Origin: an uncultured virus (IMG/VR IMGVR_UViG_3300023109_000008)
Taxonomy: Duplodnaviria > Heunggongvirae > Uroviricota > Caudoviricetes
Length of the DNA: 64,000 nucleotides
IMG/VR virus record: IMGVR_UViG_3300023109_000008
Strand: one strand, 5' to 3'
The position numbers were made by a program, and so were the translations under genes. A model generated the notes under the pieces. It did not search any database and was not told the origin of the DNA. It saw only the letters and a program-made list of their open reading frames with translations. Position 1 is the stretch's first letter; each line of letters starts with the position of its first letter. Shown piece after piece: positions 27,486 through 52,167 of the stretch.

Positions 27486-28509
27486 TTCTTAGATTGCTCC
27501 CACACTTTTTATTACAAGAACGTAAAGATCTTCTAAACCACCTGTCTTCAATCGAGTCAAGGTTTTCTCTGTAAGACTTCATCACTTCAAATATGGTATA
27601 CTTATTGAGATCGTACTTGACGTTATTTTCATCCAACCAAGTTGTGAAGTTCATCTCATCGTTCTTACTACGGAATTCTGGATTGTATTCGTTCTTAAAG
27701 AGATCTTGGTGAACGTGACAACAGGGAATCAATTGTCCCTTTGGAGTCACATACATTTTCTTCTGTCCAAGTGCCTTACAAGAGACAACATGTTCAACAA
27801 CACCTCTCTTGATCGTATCCGCTTGGAACTCTGGTCTCTTAGTTGCAGTTACTGATTTGGTAACTGTCTCAGACTTTGACGACTTCTTATATTCTTTCTT
27901 TGCAGTTGTCGAACCTTTTTCTAGTTGTCTAGAAGTCTTTTTGAAAGCAAAGTTATCAAACCCAAGTTTCCTTGCCATGTCTCTGGCTTCTTCTACTTGG
28001 TGTTCATTGTGGTTGAAAACAATAAAGATCCAACGTGCAATACCACCACCTGCCATGAATGCTTTTGCATTTTCAATGATCTTTTCGAAGTTGGTGTTGG
28101 TTCTGTAGATGTGGTTTGTATCACTCAGTCCATCAAGTGCAAAGTTCACTATCATATTATTAGGAAGTCCACCCAACTCTTTCCAGAATTGAGTGGATCT
28201 CATAGAACCATTTGTGTCGAACTGTTGTGCATCTACTGTAGATTTGGATACCATCTCTGCAATGTCAAACACCTTTGGATGGGCCATCGGATCACCGTAG
28301 TTACCACAATACTGCCACTTCTTAATTGGCCACCCAAGACATTCTTCTATCACATCCAGAGATATATCCAATGGGCCTGAGTTATAAACTTCTTTACCCA
28401 ACCCGCCTGGATATGTGCCCGTACGTGGACACAATGTACATGCAGCATTACATCTATTGGTAATCTCAGAGTCCATCTTTTTTAAATTGAACTGATTATC
28501 AATTATCAT
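27466..28509 (-). CDS. Radical SAM protein with SPASM/twitch domain
   Basis: CNAACTLC, GNYGDP, DTNGS, VSC...GQLIPCC...CNKKC. Confidence 0.88.
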   Translation of the reverse strand: MIIDNQFNLKKMDSEITNRCNAACTLCPRTGTYPGGLGKEVYNSGPLDISLDVIEECLGWPIKKWQYCGNYGDPMAHPKVFDIAEMVSKSTVDAQQFDTNGSMRSTQFWKELGGLPNNMIVNFALDGLSDTNHIYRTNTNFEKIIENAKAFMAGGGIARWIFIVFNHNEHQVEEARDMARKLGFDNFAFKKTSRQLEKGSTTAKKEYKKSSKSETVTKSVTATKRPEFQADTIKRGVVEHVVSCKALGQKKMYVTPKGQLIPCCHVHQDLFKNEYNPEFRSKNDEMNFTTWLDENNVKYDLNKYTIFEVMKSYRENLDSIEDRWFRRSLRSCNKKCGSNLRNEVVNY

Positions 28510-29914
28510 AATAAGGATCCTTGAAATGGTTTTTCCACTCTGGAAAGAAATTCAAGATGTTATCATTACGATGTTTATCTCTACGTGTGATATGGTTGAT
28601 CATCTTCTTGTACTTGTCTTCTTTGAAATCACGTTGTTCCAGAGTTTCAATCGCCTTTGTGCAAAGGTGGATCATCTCGTACGGTAGACTATAATATCTG
28701 TCCAGATAGAAATCCACGACATCATCTGGAATACAGTGTGCAGTAAACCATTTTGGTCTTGATACAGATGAGAAGTTTGGCATGACATCTGAGAACTGTG
28801 CCGCCCCATCGATGATCTCATGTACATATCCTATTGTTATTGGATTTAGTGTGCAAGTTGGCAACACTTGTAACTGAGGGATCTTCGCCATCATTTTCAT
28901 GTTACGATGTACTTCATCCCACTTTGATGGGTAACGAATGTAATCATTCTTCTCACCCCATAACTCCATAGAACATTTGTACGCAATTGATTTAAAGTTG
29001 CGTAGAAGGTCTCGCACGTATTCCATACGTGGATATCCATAGTTGTTTGTGAAGATGATAAGTTCTTTATCCTTCGCCTTGCCTGTTTTGACAAGATGTT
29101 CTAACAATTGAATATTTTGTTTTTGAAGGAAAGTTTCTCCACCGATAAGTTTGATACGTACTGCACGATCAATAATGCCCCAGTACTGATCTTCATCGAT
29201 GTAGTTGTCTTGATATCGAATCAAAGGTGGGGTAAAGGGTGGTTCAATACCTGTACGCAATGTTACACGTTCTTTAATACCCTTTGCATCTATCTCACCC
29301 AGTGCCATCTGTTCTTCTGCAACAGAAGACGAGTCCTCTACAGAACACATTAGACACTGAAGGTTACAATAGTTTCCCCACACTTTGAGTTCAACCGTGT
29401 GAAGTTTTTCTGGTAGCCCAATATTCCCATCGCCAGTTTCTTTGACTTTACTAACGAGTTTACCCATCTCGTCTTTTGTTTGGGTGTTTCTGTTTGCAGA
29501 TCTATTATAGGACTCTCGCAGGGAAGGAAACCCACGATGTTCTGTTTGAATACATCTAACACACGTCTTCAGAGTTCTTTCACGATCCTTGTGGCCACCA
29601 ACCATCTCTTCACGAAGTTTGGTGAACTCTGGTTCGTTGTAAAGTTCTTCAAAGGTTGCTTGGGAAATATGTTTCTTCACACTCATACTTGTATTACAAC
29701 AAATATGCTGGAATCCATATGTTGGCATGTACATATGAACCCAAGGCTGGGAGCAGAAGAAATCACCTTTATCTTTGATGACTTCATCTAACATATAGTT
29801 CAGATCAGGTTCACCCTTCTTGAAGTAATCATGGGGAGTAGACGCATACGCATCAGCATCATGATCTTTCAGAGCGATAAGATCTGGTTTTTCTTTTTCA
29901 GTTTTAATTTTCAT
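28499..29914 (-). CDS. Radical SAM protein with N-terminal twitch/SPASM domain
   Basis: FCSQPW...ICC...CVRC, then CNLQCLMC, LIGGETF. Confidence 0.88.
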   Translation of the reverse strand: MKIKTEKEKPDLIALKDHDADAYASTPHDYFKKGEPDLNYMLDEVIKDKGDFFCSQPWVHMYMPTYGFQHICCNTSMSVKKHISQATFEELYNEPEFTKLREEMVGGHKDRERTLKTCVRCIQTEHRGFPSLRESYNRSANRNTQTKDEMGKLVSKVKETGDGNIGLPEKLHTVELKVWGNYCNLQCLMCSVEDSSSVAEEQMALGEIDAKGIKERVTLRTGIEPPFTPPLIRYQDNYIDEDQYWGIIDRAVRIKLIGGETFLQKQNIQLLEHLVKTGKAKDKELIIFTNNYGYPRMEYVRDLLRNFKSIAYKCSMELWGEKNDYIRYPSKWDEVHRNMKMMAKIPQLQVLPTCTLNPITIGYVHEIIDGAAQFSDVMPNFSSVSRPKWFTAHCIPDDVVDFYLDRYYSLPYEMIHLCTKAIETLEQRDFKEDKYKKMINHITRRDKHRNDNILNFFPEWKNHFKDPYYDN

Positions 29915-29935
29915 AATATAGGAAGGTTCTTCCGT

Positions 29936-30634
29936 TTAGGTGTATTGTTTATAATACTTCCATGTGTGAGGTAGATTCATTTCATGCGTAAAGTGTACTA
30001 ACTTGATGTCTTCATGAAAGTCACCAAACCACGCATACTCATTACCAGTAACGTCTTCATATTTCTTATTGAAACGGTTTTGCCACTCAGTGTATAGATC
30101 AGGAAGTACATCATTCTGACTCAACCACCGTGTCTGCCATGCAGATGGTAGATAGATCAGTTCCAGTTCTTCTTTAACCGCATCCTCAACAAAATACTGT
30201 TCTCCATTTACAGGCCCACTTGTGATACCTGCACGAATGTAGAATTTCTGCCAATGTTCTACGTCTGTCATAAACTTCTCGTAGATGTACCGACAATCAT
30301 TCGGATAGTATTTGTAGAAACCACCATTCAAAGAATAGTCTGGATGCAGAGTGTCTCTCCACCATGCTCGCATAGCAAGAAACTGTCCACGTTCCACAGG
30401 AAAATCAAAACACTTTTTGTAGTCGTTAATCAGAAGAAGATCGATATCGATTACGCACACTGGTTCATCGATGTCCATATCCATTACAGACATCTTGTTC
30501 CATTGTAGTTCTACACGATTATCGTAAGGTTCACGAATCCAGACGACTTCGTAGTCGTCTCCTAGTTTCGATTCGATATAGTCTTCATATTCGGGCCCAT
30601 ATTTGTTCCCGATTCTCACAACAAAAATTTTCAT
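29936..30634 (-). CDS. GT-A glycosyltransferase-like protein (paralog of 23022..23810)
   Basis: GNKYGPEY, QWNKM, IDID, LNGGF, VNGEQYF, LVHF; start MKIFVV. Confidence 0.65.
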   Translation of the reverse strand: MKIFVVRIGNKYGPEYEDYIESKLGDDYEVVWIREPYDNRVELQWNKMSVMDMDIDEPVCVIDIDLLLINDYKKCFDFPVERGQFLAMRAWWRDTLHPDYSLNGGFYKYYPNDCRYIYEKFMTDVEHWQKFYIRAGITSGPVNGEQYFVEDAVKEELELIYLPSAWQTRWLSQNDVLPDLYTEWQNRFNKKYEDVTGNEYAWFGDFHEDIKLVHFTHEMNLPHTWKYYKQYT

Positions 30635-30638
30635 ATTT

Positions 30639-31151
30639 TTAATCTTCCGATTCTGTGTCGGACTCATCCGCTCCTTCAGGTTCACCCAAAGCAATAACTA
30701 GATCGATAACCTCTTTGTAGGTTTTCGCTTGGCGGATTGCACGCTTCACAGAAGTGTCTTCACACTGGACGACTGCTTCTTCATCAAACGCTTCAATCTT
30801 AAACTTGAAAAGTTTTTCCGCTTCGATCTTGTCTTCTTCCAGTTTTAGGAAGTTATAGATCTTTTTGAACCCAAGTTCAGAAGTATCAATGATGCCTTCA
30901 CGTGCTGCGATCAACATACATTCTTTCTCGAATGCTTTACGTGCACGACGACGATACTCTTTGGTAGACTGTTCTACCTTAGTTTCGTTCCAACCCTCTG
31001 CAATGAGGTCTTGATAGTTCGCATCAGTCTCGTCGACGTTTACGAAAAACCTACGGATCTTATCATCAGATCCTCTCCATTCAACATTGATAATTGACTT
31101 TTCCTGATCGAAAAAATACACATCAATAATGTTGTTACTAAATTCAGCCAT
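30639..31151 (-). CDS. Hypothetical protein, possible tail-fibre assembly/chaperone
   Basis: Follows two virion-type genes; LFKFKIEAF...IRQAKT motif. Confidence 0.45.
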   Translation of the reverse strand: MAEFSNNIIDVYFFDQEKSIINVEWRGSDDKIRRFFVNVDETDANYQDLIAEGWNETKVEQSTKEYRRRARKAFEKECMLIAAREGIIDTSELGFKKIYNFLKLEEDKIEAEKLFKFKIEAFDEEAVVQCEDTSVKRAIRQAKTYKEVIDLVIALGEPEGADESDTESED

Positions 31152-33321: not shown

Positions 33322-33384
33322 TTTATATTTCCTTTAGAGTTTGTTATCTATTATGGGTCTCAAAATATTTATGCCAAACGTAAA

Positions 33385-33715
33385 ACGGGCCCTTTCTGTT
33401 GCTAGGTGGAACCCATACCCCCTGCGGCTACGCTGCTAGGCGTAACTCAGATGGTGCGAAATTATCATTTGCACTTATAGTTTTTGACCGAATAACGTAG
33501 GTCACCACGGTAATCTCCACTCAACTATCCCGCCTGTCGATCCTAGTTCAGCCCCATCATAAAGACATTCTCATAAATGATACCATAGTATTAGTAAACC
33601 CTATTTTACATCGATTACTAATACTATGATGTTAGTTCAAATGTCCTTATGGTGGAGCTGTGGGGTACTGCCCCCCAGTCCAGTTCGTATTCGCTTTGCT
33701 TCAACAATTACATCT
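33385..33715 (-). ncRNA. ssrA: Circularly permuted two-piece tmRNA (alphaproteobacterial type)
   Basis: Acceptor piece ends GGGGGCAGUACCCCACAGCUCCACCA (3' end 33650); coding piece starts GGGGCUGAACUAGGAUCGAC (33555); acceptor stem has G3:U70; tag ORF 33472-33428 encodes ANDNFAPSELRLAA*; outer ends approximate. Confidence 0.93.
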
Positions 33716-33719
33716 TTAC

Positions 33720-33908
33720 TTAGTCCATGTCCATGACTAAGAATTCTTTGTCTAACCATTTGCGTTCTTTTTTGTTATACGCTTTCTTGATCTTTTTGCA
33801 AACTTTAGATCTTTGTGTATAACAGTAGAACTCACGTGCGTCAGTTAACACATCCCACTCATCACCAGAGTTCATAGGTTTTCTTGGTAGTCTACTATTT
33901 CTCTGCAT
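33720..33908 (-). CDS. Small basic hypothetical protein
   Basis: 62 aa, GDEWDVLT...KKIKKAYNKKERK; SD GGAAG. Confidence 0.6.
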   Translation of the reverse strand: MQRNSRLPRKPMNSGDEWDVLTDAREFYCYTQRSKVCKKIKKAYNKKERKWLDKEFLVMDMD

Positions 33909-34556: not shown

Positions 34557-35084
34557 TCAGTAATACCTATAGAAGATATGTTGACCAATACGACCTATCT
34601 GATATAAATCTTTAGACCATGAAGGTGTGACATACTTCGCATGATAATGTGTTGCACCTTCGGTCAACCCTCTATACTTCCCATATATCATAATAGAAAA
34701 GGCGACCATTTGGGCGCTTGACCAAGATTGTTCGTCTTTTGGTATGTCTGCCTTACCGTCACAGTACCAAGAGAACTGACACATATTGCGAACCATAACC
34801 ATTTTACTTGGATCTTTCCAAGAAGGTTTTTGTTTCCCTTGGTGTACAACTTCACAGACAGTGTTTGGATAACGATCACTCGCCACACGATTCAACACAA
34901 CATCACTCACTGCGTATTGACCAGCGAGACTATCTGAACGTGTCTCATAGTATACGTTCAATGCGAGACATTTCATCTCTTCCCAATCTACATCGGTAGA
35001 CGACTCAGATGCAGGTACTGCACCAGATAACATCATTGATGCCGCTACTGCAGCCATAACTAATTTTTTCATTTCTGCTCTCAT
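34557..35084 (-). CDS. Cell wall hydrolase (SleB/Hydrolase_2 family)
   Basis: Signal peptide, CLALNVYYETR, VLNRV, CQFSWYCDG, GATHYHA, IGQHIFY. Confidence 0.9.
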   Translation of the reverse strand: MRAEMKKLVMAAVAASMMLSGAVPASESSTDVDWEEMKCLALNVYYETRSDSLAGQYAVSDVVLNRVASDRYPNTVCEVVHQGKQKPSWKDPSKMVMVRNMCQFSWYCDGKADIPKDEQSWSSAQMVAFSIMIYGKYRGLTEGATHYHAKYVTPSWSKDLYQIGRIGQHIFYRYY

Positions 35085-37370: not shown

Positions 37371-37389
37371 TACAACTCCATAGTATAAG

Positions 37390-37550
37390 GTGTGGGCCGG
37401 ATTAAGGATTACCGACATCTACTCGCACAGGACGTTCCTGTCAAACTCGCTTTCGAACCTTCTTGCATCCGCTAAGACATGGCGCTAACCATCTTCAGAA
37501 GTACTTTATGGGCACGTCCACCCATTATTCAGTCACCACGATCCCACTCC
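37390..37550 (-). ncRNA. Structured RNA resembling the manA RNA motif
   Basis: Terminal GUGGG/CCCAC pairing; internal GAAUA..GGGUGG..GUGCCC..ACUUCUGA and GAUGUCGGU..AAUCCGG elements; adjacent to tRNA; family assignment from memory of the consensus. Confidence 0.55.
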
Positions 37551-37571
37551 GTCGAGTGAAAACTAAAAATT

Positions 37572-37645: not shown

Positions 37646-37647
37646 AT

Positions 37648-37890
37648 GTGTTTGATCAACACCACGATCAAACGTGCAGTAAATTAGAGTGACCCTCAAG
37701 TTGAGTAGTTGACCTTCTGCAATCTTTTTACAGTCAACTTCTGTTCAGCAACTCACTATCTCTTGGTACTGCTTTAATATCGGCCCGTCTTATTTTCTAA
37801 CGTGGCACAGGCTACCACAGACAACAGATCTCTTAAAGTCGTTTTCCATACTTTAGCATGGGGGAGTCGACAACCACTCACTGTGTCTTA
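37648..37890 (-). ncRNA. Unassigned ~240-nt structured RNA candidate
   Basis: No substantial ORF; own promoter; several hairpins and a long-range closing stem. Confidence 0.5.
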
Positions 37891-37897
37891 CCTTGTT

Positions 37898-37926
37898 AAT
37901 ATAACACTTGTTGCCTCAAAAGGCAA
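37898..37926 (-). promoter_or_regulatory. Early-type promoter of the ncRNA/tRNA-Gly operon
   Basis: TTGCCT-N17-TATATT followed by AAGGTAAG leader start. Confidence 0.75.
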
Positions 37927-40389: not shown

Positions 40390-40463
40390 TGGCAGGAGTG
40401 CAGGGAGTCGAACCCCAGCTTTTGGATTTGGAATCCAACGTGCTTCCATAACACTTCACTCCT
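40390..40463 (-). tRNA. tRNA-Trp (CCA)
   Basis: Acceptor AGGAGTG/CACTCCT-G-CCA; anticodon arm TTGGA-TTCCAAA-TCCAA. Confidence 0.93.
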
Positions 40464-40465
40464 AT

Positions 40466-40542
40466 TGGTCTCAGTGGCTGGATTTGAACCAACGACATCT
40501 ACGTCCCAAACGTAGCGGTCTACCAGACTGACCTACACTGAG
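40466..40542 (-). tRNA. tRNA-Pro (TGG)
   Basis: Acceptor CTCAGTG/CACTGAG-A-CCA; anticodon arm CTACG-TTTGGGA-CGTAG. Confidence 0.93.
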
Positions 40543-40548
40543 TAAAGT

Positions 40549-40596
40549 GAAGGGGCGACATTGTAAGTTGTAAGAGAAAGGAGATGTCGCCCCTTC
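40549..40596 (-). ncRNA. Hairpin sRNA candidate with loop antisense to phage early leaders
   Basis: 13-bp perfect stem GAAGGGGCGACAT/ATGTCGCCCCTTC; 22-nt loop CUCCUUUCUCUUACAACUUACA on the transcribed strand. Confidence 0.55.
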
Positions 40597-40603
40597 TTGA
40601 CGA

Positions 40604-41479
40604 CTAGTCGTCAAACAGTTTTGCAAGGGTTGCTGGCCCTGCGATACCATCAGCAGTCAATCCATTGTCTGACTGCCATTTTTTCAATGCACGTTCTGTG
40701 CCTGGCCCAAAGTCTCCGTCTGCACCAATACCCAATGCTTCTTGCATCAGTTTGACTCCATCGCCTTTTGCACCTTTACGTAGTACACCGATATCGTCAA
40801 TGATATCTTCGATGTCATCATCATCTGCAGCGAGATCTTCTGCGTCCATTCCTAGAACTTCCATAGCGTGCATGTAACGTTTCTTACGATCATCCAAGCC
40901 AATAGAGCCACCATTAATTTTTTTCGTCATTTTCTTAACGTCATCACCATCGGCAATATCGTTTAGATTATTTGCGTCCCAGAACCAACATGCACTTTCA
41001 ATTGCACCCGCTGGTGTTGCAACGTACACTGCCGCTTCTTCTGCAGTCATATCTACAGTTTTACCAAAGCGTGTATAGTTCTCACGGCCAGTCAACTGTT
41101 TCAAGCCTCGGCCTCTGAATAACCATCCGTCACCCTCGTTGACATTGCCCATTTTGTATTTACGGAACTCGTCCATATACACATAATTTGCAATCATCTC
41201 CGGCTGTCTGTGATATTCGTCTGCATCACGTTTTGGAGATGCGCCGAAGTATCTACCAAAGACGGCACGTAGAGCCTTTGCAGAGTAGTTTAAATTTTCT
41301 TCTAATTTCTTAAAACCTGCAGATTCATGTGCACATTGAGATAAGAAGTGCGCCACTCTACGTTCAGTTGTAATGCCGTACTTTGGAAGAAGTTCACAAA
41401 GTGCGTCATACCAATCATCTGCATCTGCAGAAATAATTTCCCCAAGGTGTTCCTTGGTAAAGTCGAATTCAAAACTCAT
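40604..41479 (-). CDS. Endolysin, glycoside hydrolase family 19 with C-terminal peptidoglycan-binding domain
   Basis: FLSQCAHES, EENLNYS, FRGRGLKQLTGRENY, INGG; ADGDFGPGT / ADGIAGPAT PG-binding repeats. Confidence 0.92.
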   Translation of the reverse strand: MSFEFDFTKEHLGEIISADADDWYDALCELLPKYGITTERRVAHFLSQCAHESAGFKKLEENLNYSAKALRAVFGRYFGASPKRDADEYHRQPEMIANYVYMDEFRKYKMGNVNEGDGWLFRGRGLKQLTGRENYTRFGKTVDMTAEEAAVYVATPAGAIESACWFWDANNLNDIADGDDVKKMTKKINGGSIGLDDRKKRYMHAMEVLGMDAEDLAADDDDIEDIIDDIGVLRKGAKGDGVKLMQEALGIGADGDFGPGTERALKKWQSDNGLTADGIAGPATLAKLFDD

Positions 41480-41499: not shown

Positions 41500-41577
41500 T
41501 GGCCTCCTCTGTAGGACTCGAACCTACGACCCTCTGCTTAGAAGGCAGATGCTCTAATCCAGCTGAGCTAAGAGGAG
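41500..41577 (-). tRNA. tRNA-Arg (TCT)
   Basis: Acceptor CTCCTCT/AGAGGAG-G-CCA; anticodon arm TCTGC-CTTCTAA-GCAGA. Confidence 0.93.
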
Positions 41578-42295: not shown

Positions 42296-42324
42296 ATCGT
42301 TTCCTTTGTCTCACTTACCTTATT

Positions 42325-42353
42325 AATATAATACCTTTTGCCCCAAATGTCAA
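42325..42353 (-). promoter_or_regulatory. Early promoter module
   Basis: TTGACA-N17-TATATT, leader AGGTAAGTGAGACAAAGGA. Confidence 0.8.
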
Positions 42354-42813: not shown

Positions 42814-43062
42814 TTATGCTGCCTCTCCAAATAATTGACTCATGCCTACGTATACAACGTTGTAAGCATTTACTTCAGCTTCATACCACTCATAAAAGTC
42901 ATCATCTTCTTCAAATCGGTCACTACCACTTGCATGTTCATCCCATACACGTTGCATAGCATTCATACCCTCAAGTGCATCACCACGACCAAAGTTTGTG
43001 ATAGTGTTCCATGCTTCGTCAAAGGACATGGACATCTCATAAAAATTAGGAATTATAAACAT
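42814..43062 (-). CDS. Acidic hypothetical early protein
   Basis: Start MFIIPNF immediately after the promoter leader. Confidence 0.65.
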   Translation of the reverse strand: MFIIPNFYEMSMSFDEAWNTITNFGRGDALEGMNAMQRVWDEHASGSDRFEEDDDFYEWYEAEVNAYNVVYVGMSQLFGEAA

Positions 43063-43094
43063 TCGTTTCTCACTTTCTCTCAACTTACCTATAT

Positions 43095-43123
43095 AATATA
43101 GTACTTTTTACATCAAAAGGCAA
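43095..43123 (-). promoter_or_regulatory. Early promoter module
   Basis: TTGCCT-N17-TATATT, leader AGGTAAGTTGAGAGAAAGTGAG. Confidence 0.8.
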
Positions 43124-43185
43124 GCCTTTTTTGTAATTATTTTAAATTTTCTTTTCCAACAAAAACAATCACTTAGCGAGTTTCT

Positions 43186-43755
43186 ATGAAAAAAATAATT
43201 TTTTTCGTTGTGGCAGGTTACTTTTTATCCGCTTGTGGCCCTCAATCAGATCCGATATTCAATTATCAATCACCATATAAACACAATGATTATGCATTCG
43301 TGAAGGCAGCACATGGTTTCATCGGCCTCCATGAAAAGGAAGATAGGTCAAAGATCAAAGACCTTACAGGAGTAGATCCAGTCCACACAGAATGGTGTGC
43401 GGCTTTCGTGAACTCTATCCTAAAATTAAATAACGTGGCTGGTTCAGAGTCTGTCAATGAATATCCTCTGATGGCACGAAGTTTTTTGTTTTGGGGGATT
43501 GATGTTTGGGAACCAAGGATTGGAGACATCGTCGTCTTTCCAAGAGGCGATGCTGGATGGAAAGGACATGTCGGTTTCTACATTGAAACGAGAACAATAG
43601 ATGGTATAGATTATTATGTCATCCTTGGTGGTAATCAAAAGAACAAGGTAGGTTATGAACTCTACCCTGCTTATAAAGCCCTCTCTATTAGGAGATCAGC
43701 CCCCGTTCCCTTGAAGCGTCCATCACAATCTAAGCCTCCGTACGATCATGGATAG
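43186..43755 (+). CDS. Lipoprotein cysteine peptidase/amidase (TIGR02594-like, NlpC/P60-CHAP fold)
   Basis: Lipobox LSAC, WCAAFVN, GHVGF, LGGNQ. Confidence 0.8.
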   Translation: MKKIIFFVVAGYFLSACGPQSDPIFNYQSPYKHNDYAFVKAAHGFIGLHEKEDRSKIKDLTGVDPVHTEWCAAFVNSILKLNNVAGSESVNEYPLMARSFLFWGIDVWEPRIGDIVVFPRGDAGWKGHVGFYIETRTIDGIDYYVILGGNQKNKVGYELYPAYKALSIRRSAPVPLKRPSQSKPPYDHG

Positions 43756-44677: not shown

Positions 44678-44705
44678 TTCGTCCTTTCGATCAACTTACT
44701 CTTAT

Positions 44706-44734
44706 AATATAGGGTATAAACAAGGAAAAGGCAA
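44706..44734 (-). promoter_or_regulatory. Early promoter module
   Basis: TTGCCT-N17-TATATT, leader AGTAAGTTGATCGAAAGGA; upstream AT tract identical to that of the 43.1 kb module. Confidence 0.8.
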
Positions 44735-44752
44735 GCCTTTTTTGTAATTATT

Positions 44753-45166
44753 TTAAATTTTCTTTCCTAATGTTTTCAATGACTTAAACTTTTTCGTCAA
44801 AATTTTCTCAAATTTTCTTGCTTCGACTTCGTACCAGAGATCCATATACTCATCATAAGTCGAATGATCAGACTGATTCGTTATATCTAATGTCTTACGT
44901 GCGTACTGCATCACGTGAACCATCTCATGACAGATCGTCGTAACCAGTTTAGAGAGGGAGAGGTTTGCGTTTACTTCAAGTTCGAACTCACGAGTATCGA
45001 TTGCGCAACAGTAACCGTATTGATGTGATTCCAGTTTGTTATTCAAGATCACATCAATCTCTAACGTGCGCATACGAGGCATCAGTTCGTCAATGCAGAA
45101 CCTGACCACCTGTTCTGCAATCGAACGTTTTAGTTTTGTCGAACCTTCTGCGTAAACGTAGTTCAT
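44753..45166 (-). CDS. Zincin-like metallopeptidase (HExxH)
   Basis: TICHEMVHVMQ followed by WYEVEA. Confidence 0.7.
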   Translation of the reverse strand: MNYVYAEGSTKLKRSIAEQVVRFCIDELMPRMRTLEIDVILNNKLESHQYGYCCAIDTREFELEVNANLSLSKLVTTICHEMVHVMQYARKTLDITNQSDHSTYDEYMDLWYEVEARKFEKILTKKFKSLKTLGKKI

Positions 45167-45801: not shown

Positions 45802-45829
45802 ATTTGTACCTCTCTCTATTAACTTCAAG

Positions 45830-45862
45830 ATTATACTAACACGAAAAGGGCACAAATGTCAA
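45830..45862 (-). promoter_or_regulatory. Probable early promoter module
   Basis: GGCTTGACA -35 with TAGTAT/TATAAT downstream (spacing non-ideal); leader GAAGTTAATAGAGAGAGG. Confidence 0.6.
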
Positions 45863-45924: not shown

Positions 45925-45932
45925 TATAAATA
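45925..45932 (+). promoter_or_regulatory. T4-type late promoter
   Basis: TATAAATA upstream of the porin-like gene. Confidence 0.65.
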
Positions 45933-51678: not shown

Positions 51679-52167
51679 ATGATCACTAACTATTTATCTC
51701 CAACGTCATTCTTTGTTTCTATCGATAGACTTCCGAATGTGGAATTCTTTACACAGAAAGTGACAATACCAGATGTGTCGGGGAACCCACAACAGTTGAA
51801 CTCACCACTTGGGATCTTGTATGATACTCCAAGCCAATTGATCTATTCAGATCTCGACATGTCATTTATCGTCGATGAGGATATGAAAAACTATTTGGAG
51901 ATTCTGAACTGGATGGAAGGTATGGGCGCTCCAGAAAATCAAACTCAATACAAGAATCTCAAAGAGAGTGAGAGAGGAACGCAATCAGATATAACGATTG
52001 TACTCAACAACAATCACAAGAACCCAAACATCAAATTTAATTTCAAAGATTGTTTCCCCATCTCCATATCCTCAGTACCACTGGACATCACTGCGACTGA
52101 TACGAACTACGTAGAAGCGACTGTGGCATTCCGTTATACAAACTTTACGGTTGACACGTACACGTAA
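51679..52167 (+). CDS. gp3: Tail completion/tube terminator protein (gp3-like)
   Basis: NYLSPTSF, FIVDEDMKNY, FKDCFP, F.Y C-terminus; gp3-uvsY-uvsW synteny. Confidence 0.8.
   Translation: MITNYLSPTSFFVSIDRLPNVEFFTQKVTIPDVSGNPQQLNSPLGILYDTPSQLIYSDLDMSFIVDEDMKNYLEILNWMEGMGAPENQTQYKNLKESERGTQSDITIVLNNNHKNPNIKFNFKDCFPISISSVPLDITATDTNYVEATVAFRYTNFTVDTYT

Follow-up and report, generated by a model that had tools for sequence, protein, structure and literature searches.

We found that the hairpin at 40549-40596 on the minus strand of the window, by which we mean the whole 64,000-nt stretch of viral DNA that was analysed, belongs, as a divergent member, to a family of small RNAs that is conserved among marine T4-like phages (Melnitz-type, Kyanoviridae). 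This family, termed here CU-loop RNA, is undescribed as far as Rfam 15 and the literature reach: Rfam 15 returned nothing at gathering thresholds for the window hairpin (at E <= 1 only noise appeared, RF04343 with 24.8 against 55.8 bits) and nothing at the hairpins of nine relatives, and the literature searches returned no description of it, in agreement with the first-pass annotation of this DNA, which knew of none. As the most likely reading, put at about even odds, we propose that the hairpin is a base-pairing RNA which would mask the 5' leader and the Shine-Dalgarno (SD) sequence of a subset of early phage mRNAs. What the first-pass annotation said of the hairpin, of its nature as an RNA element and of its antisense complementarity stands; its extension to the whole early-gene class and to an early-to-late switch is unsupported or overstated.

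The window belongs to a T4-like marine myophage with a GC content of ~40% (UvsX, gp32, gp41 helicase, UvsY, UvsW, gp55 late sigma, gp46/47 and gp43 polymerase), and its nearest named relatives are the Methylophilales phages Melnitz (Kyanoviridae); megablast of the hairpin locus against named phages gave no match. We also observe a permuted (two-piece) tmRNA at 33384-33758 on the minus strand (RF04321, 114 bits; alpha_tmRNA, 99.8 bits), which is a known trait of Melnitz-type phages according to the Melnitz paper (PMC9004378), and, directly 3' of tRNA-Gly on the same strand, a sub-threshold manA RNA motif at 37386-37559 (RF01745, 44.7 bits against a gathering threshold of 55.2, E 6e-9). Further cell-wall-hydrolase-like genes are found at 34557-35084 on the minus strand (PHROG 938, endolysin-like) and at 43186-43755 on the plus strand (a lipoprotein with a tail-lysozyme-like domain). 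The features on which the analysis turns are these:

40549..40596, minus strand: hairpin RNA with a 13-bp stem and a 22-nt loop, a divergent promoterless member of the CU-loop family
40562..40583, minus strand: loop, CUCCUUUCU-CUUACAA-CUUACA, with a CU-rich 5' half and two CUUACA(A) repeats
40543..40548, minus strand: spacer of 6 nt between the hairpin and the tRNA-Pro 5' end, the expected RNase P cleavage site
40466..40542, minus strand: tRNA-Pro(UGG), found by ARAGORN, beginning 6 nt past the stem
40390..40463, minus strand: tRNA-Trp(CCA), found by ARAGORN
40597..40614, minus strand: small palindrome TTGACGACTAGTCGTCAA, containing the endolysin stop codon and abutting the stem, in the place of the relatives' RNA promoter
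40604..41479, minus strand: endolysin gene (PHROG 181, E 1.7e-70), syntenic with the L010-L056 endolysins, where promoter and hairpin follow
41500..41577, minus strand: tRNA-Arg(UCU), 5' of the endolysin in a common operon
42296..42353, minus strand: promoter TTGACA-17-TATATT and leader GGUAAGUGAGACAAAGGAAACGAU of the operon that contains the hairpin; loop duplex -15.8 kcal/mol
43063..43123, minus strand: promoter TTGCCT-17-TATATT and leader GGUAAGUUGAGAGAAAGUGAGAAACGA, the best predicted loop partner, -23.7 kcal/mol
44678..44734, minus strand: sigma70-like promoter and leader AGUAAGUUGAUCGAAAGGACGAA; loop duplex -17.8 kcal/mol
45802..45862, minus strand: promoter TTGACA-18-TAGTAT and leader ..GAAGUUAAUAGAGAGAGGUACAAAU; loop duplex -16.8 kcal/mol
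37646-37926, minus strand: fifth promoter TTGCCT-17-TATATT with leader GGUAAGAC.., a non-coding RNA of ~245 nt, then tRNA-Gly

The stem arms, on the plus strand GAAGGGGCGACAT at 40549-40561 and ATGTCGCCCCTTC at 40584-40596, are perfect complements with 22 nt in between and form the window's longest perfect inverted repeat within 60 nt (19 pairs listed). Read on the minus strand, where the gene order is endolysin, hairpin, tRNA-Pro, tRNA-Trp, the loop is CUCCUUUCUCUUACAACUUACA and stays open in the minimum free energy fold, with the 13-bp stem kept; the 3' sequence is ACUUUACUCAG, so that a U-tract is absent. The geometry claimed in the first-pass annotation, a perfect 13-bp stem and a 22-nt loop with no U-tract and tRNA-Pro 6 nt on, is therefore recovered in full. 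A GC-rich stem at a gene end is shared with intrinsic (Rho-independent) terminators, but we reject this candidate, since the loop measures 22 nt (vs 3-8 nt) and is followed by ACUUUACUC without a U-tract, the terminator scan did not list the hairpin, and relatives carry a separate canonical terminator 3' of theirs; the remark that this is not a normal terminator is upheld by the loop length and the absent U-tract. The window hairpin lacks a promoter of its own, the stop-codon palindrome abutting the stem with no -10 element, and no upstream processing site is evident.

By covariance model and synteny, the CU-loop family comprises at least 42 distinct marine phage contexts and the cultured phage Melnitz. 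At 15 of the 80 loci of endolysin relatives, a consensus promoter and a hairpin lie directly 3' of the homologous endolysin stop, with a different stem, the loop (A/U)CCU(C/U)UCUCUCUCAACUCUCUC, and then tRNA-Gly or a canonical terminator; the endolysins of L010-L014, with promoter and hairpin after the stop codon, share 87-89% identity with that of the window. Scanning for the loop core returned more than 120 stretches, and most among the matches listed share this architecture, in several upstream gene contexts. A stem-pattern scan of viral contigs gave six loci, four of which (L002-L004, L007) were discarded as unrelated chance matches. We built a covariance model, R1, with the window copy included in the seed alignment, and over the window and 99 loci it matches 59 hairpins and the window's own, one copy per contig; the extra matches are a target gene, hit in antisense at three sites, and a weak site that is probably spurious. 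The window match (cmsearch; 40544-40600 on the minus strand, 35.3 bits, E 1.4e-6 in 913 kb) owes its score partly to construction, because the window sat in the seed alignment, and is the lowest of the family (35.3 vs 51-73 bits). There was no R1 match on the window's plus strand, and both this and the relatives' copies with promoter and terminator bear out the earlier view of the hairpin as an RNA element of the minus strand.

The stems, which are 13-17 bp long (13 bp in the window), vary in sequence while remaining paired: in the R1-fitted alignment, both partners have changed in 11 of 14 pairs, and 80.4% of cells pair, vs 72.4% when shuffled (0/500 reach) and 40-58% with the partners slid. 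Because G-U pairs are abundant and R1 scores are higher forward than in reverse (51-73 vs 16-20 bits), we take the direction that exposes the pyrimidines as the transcribed strand. The pyrimidine-rich loop, 22-29 nt long, is near-invariant (CCUCUCUCUCAACUCUCUC). An own promoter of the form TTGAC-N16-18-TAnnnT, ending 2-10 nt before the stem, is present in 41 of the 42 distinct contexts; 3' of the hairpin, 14 have tRNA-Gly at 5-11 nt and 17 have a T-tract terminator (a fifteenth tRNA call, in L110, was rejected as an artefact of an empty sequence). A downstream tRNA or terminator is thus a family trait to which the window conforms, with tRNA-Pro at 6 nt. As a separate observation, in relatives the CU-loop hairpin precedes tRNA-Gly in place of the window's non-coding RNA at 37646-37926, the fold of which is weakly better than that of shuffles (z = -1.7).

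The window copy shares with its relatives and with Melnitz a homologous hairpin, the place behind the endolysin and the loop elements CCUUUCUCU..CAACU..C, and differs from them in the absence of the promoter, in reading CUUACAA in both units where they read CUCUCAA, and in being followed by tRNA-Pro, whereas relatives with a tRNA have tRNA-Gly next. Stated as cores, the family loop is CUCUCAACUCUCUC and the window loop CUCUUACAACUUAC, and the shared elements also occur in the L094 type. A pattern search with free loop positions gave 78 matches, 16 canonical, two of window type and the remainder unrelated, with no intermediates between the canonical and the window loop. Elsewhere, the window form was found only in the contig G001, which is uninformative for covariation since it is 99% identical to the window, and in one 18-kb contig. 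The window copy has lost the hairpin promoter and lies inside an early-type operon, between endolysin and tRNA-Pro.

A variant with ~95% identity occurs in the metagenome contig L317 and in the RNA-library contig X5 (record 25). Its flanking gene has 35 differences in 737 nt (~4-5% divergence) and its stem is intact apart from the closing pair; its loop, CUCUUUCCUCUUUCUCUUACA, is changed at 6 of 22 positions (27%; five substitutions and one deletion), with pyrimidine content kept or raised. The variant loop was absent from viral contigs and occurred once in metagenome contigs, on a 1.9-kb contig without leaders. The X5 record bridges tRNA-Pro, hairpin and endolysin, and the locus is present in metatranscriptome assemblies, although these are assembled contigs, silent on ends, strand and level, in which DNA carry-over is possible and cover gaps (for example 40598-40711 in X1) carry no meaning.

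In the cultured phage Melnitz, R1 finds a copy at MZ577097.1 38546-38601 (45 bits, E 2e-11) that lies between a promoter and a terminator and whose 14-bp stem again differs in sequence. A hypothetical coding sequence, MelnitzEXVC044M_66 (L235 3548-3727 = MZ577097.1 38547-38726), overlies this promoter-hairpin-terminator unit and is probably a mis-call of the small-RNA gene. A term search of the Melnitz paper (PMC9004378) found no mention of a small or non-coding RNA or of a hairpin, and BLAST of the element against named phages matched only four Melnitz isolates, a search whose sensitivity is limited by the low-complexity filter. A duplex scan of the complete Melnitz genome found no outstanding target of the loop: the best non-self site, at -25.4 against -48 for the self-match, falls among ordinary tail values, which counts against the antisense reading.

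We next describe the transcription units of the window. Five sigma70-like promoters and no T4-type late box TATAAATA are found on the minus strand between 37 and 46 kb, and for this reason we assign the hairpin to an operon of early type, led by the promoter at 42353. Four of these promoters with their leaders lie where the first-pass annotation had located them. On the plus strand, late-promoter boxes TATAAATA occur at 45925, 49968 and 51639, just 5' of ORFs that include the tail-tube gene at 51679; the window as a whole has five matches to the box, vs 2.9 expected. A cassette of ~40 nt, aaaaggcaagccttttttgtaattattttaaattttc, is near-identical at 43115-43155 and 44727-44767, 5' of two minus-strand promoters; it contains the -35 box and a small bidirectional hairpin and looks like a duplicated promoter module.

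The complementarity of the loop to promoter-proximal leaders exceeds the controls. In a duplex scan of the whole window (21,322 windows of 36 nt, both strands), the top non-self partner of the loop is the leader at 43055-43090 on the minus strand, behind the promoter at 43123 (-23.7 kcal/mol), and the leaders of the promoters at 44734, 45862 and 42353 rank 8th, 19th and 28th among non-overlapping matches. The summed energy over the four leaders is -74.1, vs -37.2 +/- 6.4 for loop shuffles, a value that 0/2000 shuffles reach. Among 76 ribosome-binding regions, the two leaders at true start codons rank 1st and 2nd; the other two stood at TTG-extended starts in that table and, rescored at ATG, reach -23.7 and -16.8 and beat the best other region (-13.3). 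The predicted pairing joins GUAAGUUG with CAACUUAC and, after a 2-nt bulge, AGAGAAAG with CUUUCUCU. The first proposal, that promoter-proximal leaders with their SD region have an antisense in the loop, is supported by the top rank and the shuffles, but good scores are confined to four of the eight promoter-proximal ribosome-binding regions of the window, short of a whole early-gene class. No signal comes from the fifth promoter, the one ahead of tRNA-Gly (-9.5; 811/2000 shuffles reach). The relatives' loops score -63 to -70 on the window's leaders, vs -74 for the window loop, and therefore the window-specific loop changes add little energy; the variant loop of X5/L317 scores -54.4, a marginal excess over its shuffles (38/1000 reach). 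Both in the window and in the 118-kb G001, the loop complement with <=3 mismatches occurs solely at the hairpin itself, and the window lineage thus holds no near-perfect target.

Such a target is present in the relative G002, in which the ribosome-binding site of a gene for a small secreted protein contains a perfect 20-nt complement of the phage's own loop (-42.3). The site, directly 5' of the AUG and 13 kb from the hairpin, is the best non-self site and is kept in two other contigs; the window has no homologue of the target protein (tblastn, best E 0.13). Neighbouring genes of the target cluster have GA-repeat ribosome-binding regions that are likewise high-scoring. The cluster (L215, G002 28134-31150) comprises four small signal-peptide genes, a coiled-coil membrane protein and a lipoprotein that is homologous to the window ORF 43186-43755, and several of its genes have GA-repeat ribosome-binding regions complementary to the CU loop of G002. 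In G003 and G006, the promoter-proximal leader AUGUAAGUUGAGAGAAAGAGGUAA, near-identical to the window's best leader, ranks 3rd-4th, and in G004 a 16-nt perfect complement takes in the lineage-specific end of the loop.

We then compared promoter-proximal ribosome-binding regions, defined by regular expression, with all other SD-bearing regions. The promoter-proximal regions have the lower median loop energy in 8/8 sequences (the window and the 99%-identical G001 counted separately), with p-values of 0.024, 0.15, 0.063, 0.18, 0.019, 0.071, 0.043 and 0.020, a modest effect in which 4/8 exceed 0.05. The hexamer TTGAGA, complementary to the invariant core of the loop, is present in 14/174 promoter-proximal leaders of RNA-bearing phages, vs 1.9 expected, and in 0/102 leaders of two related contigs of 177-180 kb that have the endolysin and lack the RNA (Fisher p = 0.0013, with only two RNA-less lineages and confounded by relatedness); G004 and G005 have no TTGAGA leaders. 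Five large endolysin-sharing contigs hold no copy of the RNA, these being fragments with 17-86% estimated completeness. The window loop fits leaders with GUAAGUUG, and any covariation between loop and leaders is based on very few lineages. Any CU-rich loop will match purine-rich SD regions, which weighs against the specific antisense reading.

If the hairpin acts by base pairing, the following course can be proposed. Most members have an early sigma70-type promoter placed to start transcription at the foot of the stem, and the hairpin is followed within a few bases by a terminator or a tRNA. The window copy would instead be transcribed within the early operon, from the promoter at 42353 through small ORFs, tRNA-Arg, endolysin, hairpin, tRNA-Pro and tRNA-Trp, and an RNase P cut at tRNA-Pro would leave it at the 3' end of the endolysin message; a second cut upstream, if any, would give a free RNA of ~55 nt. 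Release by RNase P, as the first-pass annotation suggested, is plausible, given that tRNA-Gly starts 5-11 nt 3' of the hairpin in 14 distinct relatives, comparable to tRNA-Pro here. Provided that it accumulates as a stable transcript, the loop could pair in vivo with some of the phage's early mRNAs over their initial 20-25 nt, the 5' box GUAAGUUG with CAACUUAC and the extended Shine-Dalgarno AGAGAAAGG with CCUUUCUCU. Pairing may block 30S binding, mark the mRNA for decay, or both, and the repression would appear as dose-dependent damping or a delayed shut-off. Among the putative targets is the leader of the operon that carries the hairpin itself, and this would make for feedback.

Because the RNA and its targets share the early promoter class, feedback or a delayed shut-off fits better than a switch dedicated to the passage from early to late; the label of an early-to-late switch was an overstatement, the relatives' RNA standing under an early-type promoter and the window copy in an early-type operon. 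More broadly, and with less assurance than for the base-pairing reading, we suggest that abundant marine T4-like phages may control a class of their own early genes by an RNA and not by RegA/RegB-type proteins, with the hairpin made from an early promoter or carved by RNase P from a tRNA operon, and with a loop that is the antisense of the leader (5' box and SD) and co-evolves with it. The CUUACAA loop of the window with its GUAAGUUG leaders would be one snapshot of this co-evolution, under which L317-type leaders would be expected to read GUAAGAGAAAGAGG-like.

Other explanations were weighed against the same evidence. The loop could be a general anti-Shine-Dalgarno mimic that copies the 16S rRNA pyrimidine tail and competes with ribosomes for many SDs, those of the host or of both host and phage, in which case it would tune translation globally or aid host shut-off and would not act on particular early leaders. 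We judge this unlikely, even though the loop's 5' half (CUCCUUUCU; in relatives, ACCUCUCU) presumably resembles the 16S 3' tail, values of -10 to -13 kcal/mol are reached by many ordinary ribosome-binding regions, no specific phage target stands out in Melnitz, and ribosomal protein S21, annotated in Melnitz-type phages, is a hint of interference with initiation. The invariant half of the loop, CAACUCUCUC, has no likeness to an anti-SD and matches the 5' box of the leaders, and the 20-nt perfect phage target in G002 argues in the same direction. The exact 17-nt loop complement is found in 76 of the species genomes scanned, in scattered taxa, where ~70 are expected by chance (our own arithmetic), and no genome titled Pelagibacterales or Methylophilales is among the 76, which points to no host target. 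Protein binding is a further reading, under which the CU-repeat loop would be a decoy or binding site for an RNA-binding protein of host or phage (S1 or a translational regulator, for example), and leader complementarity would be incidental. A near-invariant loop across diverged phages does suggest a conserved partner, and the missing target in Melnitz fits, but the window and L317 loops are far from the family consensus yet leader-like, and the 20-nt RNA complement in G002 is hard to explain in this way; we consider it distinctly improbable.

The conservation pattern bears on the remaining readings. It has a low probability, in our view, that the hairpin is a structural element only, whose stem protects the 3' end of the endolysin message (in relatives, the 5' end of a tRNA precursor) or guides tRNA processing, the loop in the window lineage being a relic under relaxed constraint. 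The loop is the family's most conserved part whereas stems vary, and 17 contexts have a terminator and no tRNA behind the hairpin; on the other side, the window copy lost its promoter and lies against a tRNA, and L317/X5 keep the stem intact with a loop changed by 27% against ~4-5% divergence of the flanking gene, although all the loop changes in this variant keep pyrimidines. Finally, a chance hairpin, or a functionless decayed sense copy of a leader on the plus strand, the alternative raised in the first-pass annotation, is very improbable indeed: the plus-strand loop reads leader-like and then ATG, but the frame is open for just 7 codons, a plus-strand promoter was not seen, and the covariance-model match, the synteny, the covariation and a strongly conserved family loop on variable stems all speak against it.

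Few phages of the surface ocean are as widespread as the Melnitz-type and pelagimyophage-like viruses, and the question bears on how these time gene expression without the middle-mode machinery of T4. If the masking of early leaders by the hairpin is true, CU-loop RNA would be the first RNA-based regulator of the lytic programme in this group, and if its sole action were general anti-SD mimicry, this too would be a new route of phage interference with translation. The window adds to the family a promoterless, tRNA-Pro-linked member with a remodelled loop. The Melnitz copy is listed as protein-coding, and similar elements are probably hidden in the annotation of many phage genomes; Melnitz with its OM43 host is a cultured system suited to testing the RNA.

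Several known systems offer points of comparison. RsaE/RoxS, LhrC and the alphaproteobacterial CcsR 'cuckoo' RNAs use C- or CU-rich seeds to mask Shine-Dalgarno sequences, and CU-loop RNA likewise has an exposed pyrimidine loop complementary to ribosome-binding sites, with the seed on a stem-loop. There is no sequence or Rfam relationship between them, and CU-loop RNA differs in being phage-encoded and in having one long loop with predicted pairing from the mRNA 5' end through the SD. In E. coli, the 3' external transcribed spacer of leuZ is a regulatory RNA cut from a tRNA precursor that acts as a sponge for other sRNAs; the window hairpin similarly lies in a tRNA transcript and is predicted to be freed by tRNA-processing nucleases, but it precedes the tRNA on the 5' side, and its predicted partners are mRNAs. 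In T4, the RegB endoribonuclease and the RegA translational repressor are proteins that inactivate early mRNAs at their ribosome-binding sites, and the likeness to RegA/RegB would be a functional analogy only, in which an RNA is the proposed agent and no homology is implied.
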